A stretch of DNA of 64,000 nt from a virus (IMGVR_UViG_2859810971_000007), one strand, 5' to 3'. Shown: positions 39,314-39,941, counted from the stretch's first letter. Numbers and translations: made by a program. The notes: generated by a model from the sequence alone, not told the origin.

Positions 39314-39622
39314 TTAAACGAAGCGGATCTGGAGTTTTTTTCCAGTAGCGCGGGCGAATTTTTTTAGTGTGGCAAATGATGGGCCGCTGATACCTGATGC
39401 GAGATTACTTTCCATTCTGGTGATCGCGGTCGCTTTTGTTCCCATTCGCTCGGCAACTTCAGCCTGAGTTAAGCCAGCTTCTTTGCGTGCTGCCAGCATT
39501 TCATCAAGCAGTGCGAATTCGTCAGCGATAGCGTCGTATTCTGCTTTAAAAGCCGGGTCTTCCATCCATTTGGCTGCCATTTCGTCGTGTGTCATGGTGG
39601 GGAGAGTGCGTTTACCAGTCAT
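39314..39622 (-). CDS. HigA-like antitoxin (XRE HTH)
   Basis: 102 aa; HTH segment GLTQAEVAERMGTKATAITRMESN; overlaps toxin gene stop. Confidence 0.6.
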   Translation of the reverse strand: MTGKRTLPTMTHDEMAAKWMEDPAFKAEYDAIADEFALLDEMLAARKEAGLTQAEVAERMGTKATAITRMESNLASGISGPSFATLKKFARATGKKLQIRFV

Positions 39623-39941
39623 GCTTAACCTCCTTCATTCTGGTTTCAGCTTTCTTGCGTTCGGCTGGCGGTGTTTTCTGCGCTTTCTTTACAAAACTAT
39701 GCAGCATGATGATGCGTTTCCCTGTCAGAGTGCAGTAAAAAACACGCGCGATCCCATCGTTGCCTTTAATTCTGAGTTCGAAAAGCCCGTCACCAAAGGC
39801 GCTGGTGTGAGGTTCTCCGAGATTGCTGCCGTATACCTTCATGCGTTCAACAAGATGCTGGTATCTGGCACGCATACTCAATGGAAGCTGATCGACCTCC
39901 AGTCGGACCTCTTCACTGTAGTATTCGATAGTGTAGTTCAT
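39612..39941 (-). CDS. HigB/RelE-superfamily toxin (Gp49-like)
   Basis: 110 aa from MNYTIEYY; ...GDGLFELRIKGNDGIARVFYCTLTGKRIIMLHSFVKKAQKTP typical of Gp49/RelE-fold toxins; ORF-track N-terminal extension rejected. Confidence 0.55.
   Translation of the reverse strand: MNYTIEYYSEEVRLEVDQLPLSMRARYQHLVERMKVYGSNLGEPHTSAFGDGLFELRIKGNDGIARVFYCTLTGKRIIMLHSFVKKAQKTPPAERKKAETRMKEVKHDW

Follow-up and report, generated by a model that had tools for sequence, protein, structure and literature searches.

The 64,000-nucleotide (nt) stretch of viral DNA IMGVR_UViG_2859810971_000007, referred to here at its full length as the window, very likely carries a self-contained type II toxin-antitoxin (TA) cassette of ~690 base pairs (bp; 39286–39977), which is of the Gp49/Tad–Ata ('HigB-like') kind and is borne in reverse orientation, as a 'moron' (an accessory gene block), by a defective Shigella flexneri prophage of the lambdoid type. 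The toxin gene lies on the minus strand at 39612–39941 (ATG at 39941, TAA at 39612) and encodes a RelE-superfamily protein of the Gp49/Tad type, 109 amino acids (aa) long and predicted to be a ribosome-dependent mRNA endonuclease. The antitoxin gene, on the same strand at 39314–39622 (ATG at 39622, TAA ending at 39314), encodes a 102 aa protein with N-terminal helices, predicted to bind the toxin, followed by a C-terminal XRE-type helix-turn-helix (HTH) domain; the two open reading frames (ORFs) overlap by 11 nt (ATGACTGGTAA). An earlier sequence-only reading had placed an overlapping, toxin-first TA pair on the minus strand between ninE and rha, opposite to the surrounding phage genes. This observation is confirmed and its interpretation proved essentially correct: both ORFs and their Pfam-called plus-strand flanks are present, the toxin-first order is read directly from the DNA, and the antitoxin length of 102 aa and the overlap stand, while the toxin is 109 and not 110 aa long.

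The pair is an uncharacterised member of a well-known kind and has already been labelled as such by automated annotation; the NCBI entry for the identical toxin sequence reads 'type II toxin-antitoxin system RelE/ParE family toxin' (Shigella flexneri). Taken alone, one more prophage-borne RelE-superfamily TA pair matters little; the new points are limited to how the cassette is built, with its promoter, operator and no-leader design, and to the neighbouring isrK–C4 module. The layout of promoter, operator and absent leader provides a concrete, testable rule for how toxin-first operons may limit their toxin.

The Toxin

The toxin matches the Pfam family Gp49 (PF05973, DUF891) at 88.4 bits (cut-off 23.9; E-value (E) 3.2e-25) over model positions 2–90 of 90, which bears out the proposed RelE/Gp49 fold and places the protein in the RelE/ParE superfamily. 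Homologues in the protein database number 2292 and are mostly of 109–111 aa; the window toxin retains every invariant column of a 34-sequence family alignment, including the N-terminal M-N-Y-T-I. The AlphaFold (AF2) model has a predicted local distance difference test score (pLDDT) of 91 and displays a RelE fold with four β-strands flanked by helices and a long C-terminal helix (residues 92–108). In Foldseek searches this model is closest to HigB from Streptococcus pneumoniae (6af3/6af4; E 1e-6, template modelling score (TM) 0.74–0.77), followed by HigB1 from Mycobacterium tuberculosis (7awk/7nbu, of which 7NBU is ribosome-bound) and then by YafQ, RelE, HigB2 and YoeB; by sequence, the closest PDB structure is again the HigB chain of the S. 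pneumoniae HigB/HigA complex, 6AF3.

The residues responsible for catalysis or mRNA contact in HigB1 were taken from mutational data (PMC9098466), and seven of the nine are retained; in the profile alignment toxin residues E55, R57, R66, F83, K85, Q88 and K89 correspond to HigB1 E66, R68, R77, F93, K95, Q98 and K99. In S. pneumoniae HigB the residues that matter are R68, R73, F90 and K92 (PMC7984235), all four of which are matched in the window toxin.

The start codon of the toxin is called inconsistently, with public records of 76, 87, 109, 113, 121 or 129 aa; the family alignment settles it at 109 aa, as the M1-N-Y-T-I sequence is conserved family-wide. The full 109 aa frame is intact in those loci with 76 or 87 aa calls that were checked, and the short calls seem to avoid an over-long antisense 'Rha/Ash' call; calls of this kind on the strand opposite the toxin ('ash family protein' or an over-long Rha) are likely to be spurious and lie over the isrK and C4 RNA genes. 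An extended 224 aa minus-strand ORF (39612–40286) was rejected as the toxin, as only its last 109 aa match any family; its N-terminal extension is unmatched and would cross the conserved promoter/operator and the isrK and C4 genes. A 113 aa start (ATG at 39953, MFCCM...) was likewise rejected as the general start, since this ATG belongs to the −10 element and operator. The frame upstream is closed by stop codons in E. coli TUM9812 and several distant loci, and these in-frame stops just upstream exclude an earlier start for the toxin. In phage PhiR5_2 the start codon of the toxin is ATA.

The Antitoxin

The XRE-HTH assignment made for the antitoxin in the sequence-only reading is upheld by a match to Pfam HTH_3 (E 3.4e-11, 43.5 bits against a cut-off of 23). 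There are 667 antitoxin homologues in the protein database, mostly of 93–103 aa, and the window antitoxin keeps all invariant columns of a 31-sequence family alignment. Its AF2 model (pLDDT 81) features a generic XRE-HTH preceded by two helices, and the fold search returned generic XRE matches only, with nothing beyond family level. By sequence its best PDB match is HigA of the S. pneumoniae complex (6af3_B); toxin and antitoxin therefore each match one of the two chains of a single solved complex, which was counted in favour of a HigB/HigA-type pair.

Cassette Boundaries and Control Signals

The limits of the cassette are given by the alignment of five contexts: the window, E. coli RMDEC465, E. 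coli TUM9812, the Shigella Stx phage POCJ13 and phage PhiR5_2. Similarity extends from a conserved TTG ~36 nt upstream of the toxin ATG to just past a hairpin at 39306–39286, and the flanks beyond these ends are unrelated, the unit from −35 element to hairpin occurring in at least four different flankings. In phage Stx2_EH2201 the right-hand neighbour is present at 95% identity without the cassette, with homology beginning at window position 39975; a shared unit with differing flanks and a cassette-less Stx2 phage together argue for a mobile unit of ~39286–39977. Base composition gives no sign of foreign origin, as there is no GC anomaly.

The cassette promoter (39949–39977, minus strand) consists of a −35 element TTGTGC (39977–39972), a 17-nt spacer and a −10 element TATGTT (39954–39949) that ends 7 nt from the toxin ATG; it is kept in the five E. 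coli/Shigella contexts. A generic promoter and terminator scan found the isrK terminator and one unrelated site and missed this promoter because its −35 element is weak. A putative operator palindrome of the form ATAAC-N6-GTTAT (39952–39967; ATAACGATTTTGTTAT) lies in the promoter spacer and overlaps the −10 element. The Shine–Dalgarno (SD) sequence of the antitoxin, AAGGAGG (39629–39635, minus strand), is located within the toxin 3' end, 6 nt before the antitoxin ATG. At its 3' end, where the antitoxin gene converges with ninE, the cassette has a GC-rich hairpin (39286–39306, minus strand; GCGCCGTCA-ttc-TGGCGGCGC), which is invariant in the five contexts and has a folding energy of −19.1 kcal/mol (z −2.9).

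This layout recurs throughout the family. Counts were made on 81 family loci (72 for the antitoxin SD): a TAAC-N6-GTTA palindrome is found upstream of the start codon in 71 of the 81, at −23 to −25 in 67 of those 71, and the loci that bear it span the Gamma- and Betaproteobacteria and the Nitrospirota; such palindromes are far commoner than in shuffled sequence. In 64/81 loci there is a promoter of the form TTGNNN-16..18-TANNNT whose distance to the start codon is a mere 4–8 nt (mode 6). An SD-like motif precedes the toxin in none of the 81 loci and the antitoxin in all 72 scored, and the two genes overlap by 4–17 nt in almost all loci. With a −10 element 6–7 nt from the start codon and no SD, the toxin cistron is probably leaderless; from this arrangement we infer a leaderless or near-leaderless, poorly translated toxin cistron, an efficiently translated antitoxin and autorepression through the palindrome, to which the antitoxin would bind.

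On balance, the 109 aa 'MNYTI' subfamily of Gp49 (at least 558 loci, from Enterobacterales to Nitrospirota) may share this fixed, unusually compact control, with the operator in the promoter spacer, a leaderless toxin (AUG or GUG) and a strong antitoxin SD, and may include, in E. coli and Shigella prophages, a coupling of TA status to antirepressor expression by the antitoxin. If true, a low toxin:antitoxin ratio would be hard-wired into a toxin-first operon. A search of the literature on this prophage module and on leaderless Gp49/HigB operons found nothing specific.

Selection, Linkage and Distribution

Together, the profile scores, the homologues, the selection on the genes and their linkage put the pair far beyond a chance occurrence. 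Both genes are under purifying selection; dN/dS (the ratio of nonsynonymous to synonymous substitution rates) is 0.03–0.15 for each in pairwise Nei–Gojobori comparisons of seven E. coli, Shigella and phage copies. The family was scanned with one genome per species, giving at least 558 confirmed relatives, and pair linkage was scored on the best 80: in 79 of these 80 loci of other species the next gene downstream, in the same orientation, is an antitoxin homologue, and the single unlinked locus is cut off by a contig end. The toxin family is mostly chromosomal, in non-phage contexts and across many phyla. In E. coli the cassette is rare, as the toxin occurs in 31 of 5426 complete genomes, always with the antitoxin. 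Two allele types are present in E. coli; their differences are concentrated in the first half of the toxin and in residues 14–25 of the antitoxin, and the HTH is identical; this covariation is as expected if the N-terminal helices of the antitoxin form a cognate toxin-binding surface.

A 69–73-bp remnant of the antitoxin 3' end (window 39310–39382, ~89% identity) occurs without the rest of the cassette in the Stx2a phage LC727840 (locus L014, 1501–1573) and in 42 E. coli genomes, mostly O157:H7, where it adjoins a different HigA-family HTH gene. The remnant looks like the scar of a lost or replaced cassette.

Prophage and Host Context

The window is collinear at 99.8–99.9% with the S. flexneri chromosome CP084879.1, except for an extra insertion sequence (IS) of 1264 bp. 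This IS3-family element (41457–42720), which CP084879.1 lacks, splits an O-like replication gene at codon 139; counting this one, the window contains at least five copies of the element, which has a 272 aa transposase ORF, the others at 8229–9312, 21261–22524, 32704–33972 and 58327–59592. A second IS3-family element (36773–38021, plus strand; 279 aa transposase ORF), of which another copy lies near 51783–52622, interrupts an upstream primase-like gene; just downstream of it, a 110 aa ORF fragment (38007–38339) resembles the C-terminus of a primase/toprim-type replication gene of phages. The prophage is lambda-like, defective and decaying, a description that rests on the IS in the O-like gene, the IS3 element in the primase-like gene and a nonsense codon in rha.

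On the left the cassette is flanked by NinB (38689–39099, plus strand) and NinE (39096–39272, plus strand), both called by Pfam, the latter convergent with the antitoxin gene; on the right is a plus-strand ORF with a Pfam Rha domain. The gene order is a primase-type replication gene, ninB, ninE, the TA pair, isrK/C4/rha, O, a dnaC-like gene, dnaB, ninH and Q. The region from ~36000 to 46000 features two replication modules in series, one of the primase type before ninB–ninE and one with O, DnaC-like and DnaB before ninH–Q, and the cassette lies exactly where the nin-type and early-region-type flanks meet. The combination of a nin-type left and an early-region-type right flank was found in none of 5426 complete E. 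coli genomes, and so unique a combination suggests a recombinant origin. The window differs from the allele of the ninE context at one site in the antitoxin and 12 in the toxin; these differences are no more than a hint that the hybrid ninE/ash-rha context arose by recombination within the cassette.

The isrK–C4–rha Neighbour

To the right of the cassette, on the plus strand, lie an isrK-family small RNA (sRNA) gene (40017–40093; Rfam 58.1 bits, gathering threshold 50), which ends in an intrinsic terminator (40071–40088), and a gene for a C4 antisense-type RNA (40118–40205; Rfam 80.1 bits, gathering threshold 45). The σ70-type promoter of isrK (39982–40010, plus strand) has the elements TTGATT (39982–39987) and TACACT (40005–40010) separated by 17 nt, with +1 at the first base of the isrK model. 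These are followed by rha (40260–40823, plus strand), for which the ATG at 40260 (MTTLPTLSQPEIAIVDG) is the most plausible start; its codon 18 is TAG (40311–40313) in the window, as compared to CAG in E. coli TUM9812 and AAG in the Stx2 phage, and with this nonsense codon rha is probably a pseudogene in this strain. By its composition the isrK/C4/rha segment reads as an antirepressor control locus like isrK–orf45–anrP of Gifsy-1 (PMC4825925) and immI of P1.

The isrK and cassette promoters stand back to back with their −35 elements 4 bp apart, and isrK diverges 76 nt from the toxin start. The isrK–C4 pair is found 76–82 nt from the toxin start in four of the five E. coli/Shigella contexts, with −35 elements 4–9 bp apart; the isrK sequences beside the cassette in these contexts are of two diverged types. 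Beside the non-enterobacterial family members the isrK–C4 neighbour is absent. An sRNA-Xcc1-family RNA is located upstream of antirepressor genes near the cassette in Edwardsiella ictaluri (L017, 2586–2671) and at two further loci (L004, 6616–6699; L015, 5284–5367), and may be another variant of the theme of RNA-controlled antirepressors.

The sequence-only reading had rejected the long plus-strand ORF 39483–40313, which covers the TA genes, as antisense. This holds over the TA genes, where the ORF is non-coding; the last third (40005–40313) is functional DNA. An 'Ash' gene was considered for this ORF and set aside: its Pfam Phage_ASH match covers the same DNA as the two above-threshold Rfam RNAs, no usable start codon is available in 39855–40122, and where the TA-less Stx2 phage has its native ATG, the window has cassette sequence instead. 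The Ash reading is unlikely in the window.

Proposed Mechanism and Role

The σ70-type promoter whose −10 element is seen 7 nt from the toxin ATG would give a single bicistronic mRNA, with its start point predicted from the position of that element. The toxin lacks an SD and is probably leaderless, so it would be translated at a low level, while the AAGGAGG of the antitoxin and the overlap of its gene with the toxin stop codon would cause the antitoxin to be made in excess. The N-terminal helices of the antitoxin are predicted to neutralise the toxin by binding it, and a dimer of its C-terminal XRE-HTH domain would sit on ATAAC-N6-GTTAT and repress the operon; both steps draw on homology to S. 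pneumoniae HigBA and on the covariation of alleles. If the antitoxin were lost, the toxin, judged by its fold and conserved catalytic residues (E55, R57, R66, F83, K85, Q88, K89), would enter the ribosomal A site and cleave mRNA, leading to growth arrest.

The most likely role of the cassette would be selfish retention or stabilisation of the prophage segment, by analogy to the homologous gp49/gp48 module of phage N15, for which such a role has been reported; this is consistent with its retention while the prophage around it decays. An addictive element would be expected to survive in just this way, intact and under selection in an IS-riddled remnant, and the cassette may help explain the persistence of this prophage segment in S. 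flexneri, a human pathogen.

Several points weigh against this account of an active, compactly controlled and stabilising cassette. The prophage is integrated and already defective, which leaves little for classical post-segregational killing to act on. No U-tract follows the cassette hairpin in the window context, and its function as a terminator is therefore uncertain. About one third of family members would need a leaderless 5'-GUG start, and such starts are inefficient in E. coli. In the toxin itself, two of the HigB1 contact residues are replaced by others (N73→D62, K58→S47), and the sole difference from the predominant S. flexneri allele (365 contigs) is T87A, an ACG→GCG change on the coding strand (codon 39683–39681, minus strand); A87 itself occurs on 33 contigs. 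Of 110 scored homologues, 107 have T or S at position 87, which falls between the catalytic residues K85 and Q88/K89; with so rare a change in the catalytic loop, the A87 copy in the window may be attenuated. The Gp49 toxins HigB2 and HigB3 of M. tuberculosis are non-toxic when expressed (PMC9098466).

Selection for anti-phage defence, by abortive infection or superinfection exclusion, is a possible but rather unlikely alternative and receives no support here; infection would stop host transcription, the labile antitoxin would be lost, and the mRNA endonuclease would halt translation before progeny form. In favour of such a role, the cassette resides in a prophage, brings its own promoter and would be expressed while the prophage is repressed; that it runs against the direction of the early operon in which it lies is as expected of an accessory block of genes, and type II TA modules are generally linked to phage defence in reviews. 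The C-terminal half of the toxin (residues 49–99) weakly resembles the C-terminus of NsnC from PADLOC (E 5e-9); however, beyond this partial match and generic HTH matches, PADLOC-DB profiles cover neither protein, PHROGs lists the toxin family as 'unknown function', and no report of defence by a Gp49/XRE pair was found in the literature searched. The mostly chromosomal, non-phage distribution of the family also speaks against a defence role.

Somewhat less probable still is a decayed or attenuated pair, in which the A87 toxin is no longer toxic and the HTH protein alone matters as a regulator, for instance of the back-to-back promoter of isrK–C4–rha. The rarity of the T87A change, the degraded state of the prophage, the non-toxic HigB2 and HigB3, and the cassette abutting the isrK–C4–antirepressor promoter in four of five contexts are consistent with such a remnant. 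However, the toxin ORF is full length and keeps all family-invariant residues, selection among alleles is strongly purifying on both genes, and one conservative change is weak evidence of inactivation; its presence on 33 contigs argues that the A87 allele is stably inherited. Since isrK and C4 have no counterpart beside family members outside the enterobacterial prophages, regulating that operon cannot be the core function of the cassette. That the toxin acts as a ParE-like poison of gyrase and not as an mRNA endonuclease is very improbable: the generic NCBI 'RelE/ParE family' label covers both activities, which share a fold, and ParE2 and PrpT appear among the weak fold matches (ranks 21 and 32), but the ParE matches reach only E 0.03–0.05 and TM 0.43–0.47, compared to E 1e-6 to 1e-3 and TM up to 0.77 for HigB/RelE/YafQ, and the residues required for RNase activity by mutation in HigB1 and S. 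pneumoniae HigB are conserved.

Comparison with Known Systems

Canonical HigBA modules (Rts1 of Proteus vulgaris, ygjN/ygjM of E. coli K-12 and those of Vibrio cholerae) share with the window pair a toxin-first operon, a RelE-superfamily toxin and an XRE-HTH antitoxin that doubles as repressor. The profile search that the sequence-only reading proposed for Gp49/RelE and HigA was positive for Gp49 and HTH_3; among Pfam matches at E ≤ 0.01 the toxin returned only Gp49 and no canonical HigB-type family, and NCBIfam returned no HigA-family model, with only a sub-threshold match to TIGR02683 (19.8 bits against 62.85). Gp49 toxins have little sequence similarity to canonical HigBs (PMC5906591). With no match to canonical HigB or HigA profiles, the term 'HigBA-like' used in that reading fits the layout and mechanism in a broad sense, and by sequence the precise family of the pair is the Gp49/Tad–Ata branch, which includes N15 gp49/gp48, S. 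pneumoniae HigBA and M. tuberculosis HigB1. Toxins of the Gp49 kind are encoded in toxin-first operons with XRE antitoxins (PMC5906591; PMC2701414).

HigB1 of M. tuberculosis (Rv1955), from a toxin-antitoxin-chaperone (TAC) system, displays the same Gp49-like RelE fold as the window toxin (TM 0.71–0.76) at ~22% identity, and serves as the mechanistic model, with mRNA cleavage in the A site on the ribosome. No gene for a SecB-like chaperone lies downstream of the window antitoxin, where only the hairpin and the convergent ninE are present.

HigBA of S. pneumoniae (6AF3/6AF4) provides the best PDB sequence match for both proteins and the best fold match for the toxin. The two toxins share the long C-terminal helix and the ELR, R, F and K active-site residues, and S. 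pneumoniae HigA is an XRE-HTH protein with N-terminal toxin-binding helices that binds promoter palindromes (PMC7984235). In contrast to the window pair, this system is from a Gram-positive chromosomal locus, and identity in the structural alignment is 18–19%.

N15 gp49 is the founding member of the Gp49/Tad–Ata group; Tad–Ata pairs, with a COG4679/DUF891 toxin and an XRE antitoxin, also occur in Paracoccus pAMI2 and in SXT. The N15 gp49/gp48 pair is homologous to the window pair, with BLASTP identities of 45% for the toxin (E 3e-26) and 38% for the antitoxin (E 2e-15); both pairs are phage-borne and toxin-first, with a Pfam Gp49 toxin and adjacent or overlapping genes. The experimental status of gp49/gp48 is taken from PMC5906591 and PMC2701414, which cite Dziewit 2007. 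As a prophage, N15 is a linear plasmid, for which stabilisation makes obvious sense, whereas the window copy resides in an integrated, defective lambdoid prophage. The N15 toxin lacks the first ~14 residues of the window toxin and has an ordinary Shine–Dalgarno leader (caGGAGGttatactATG), while in the window subfamily the promoter abuts the start codon and the TAAC-N6-GTTA palindrome is conserved; the normal leader of N15 gp49 therefore argues that the compact design belongs to the window subfamily and not to all Gp49 modules.

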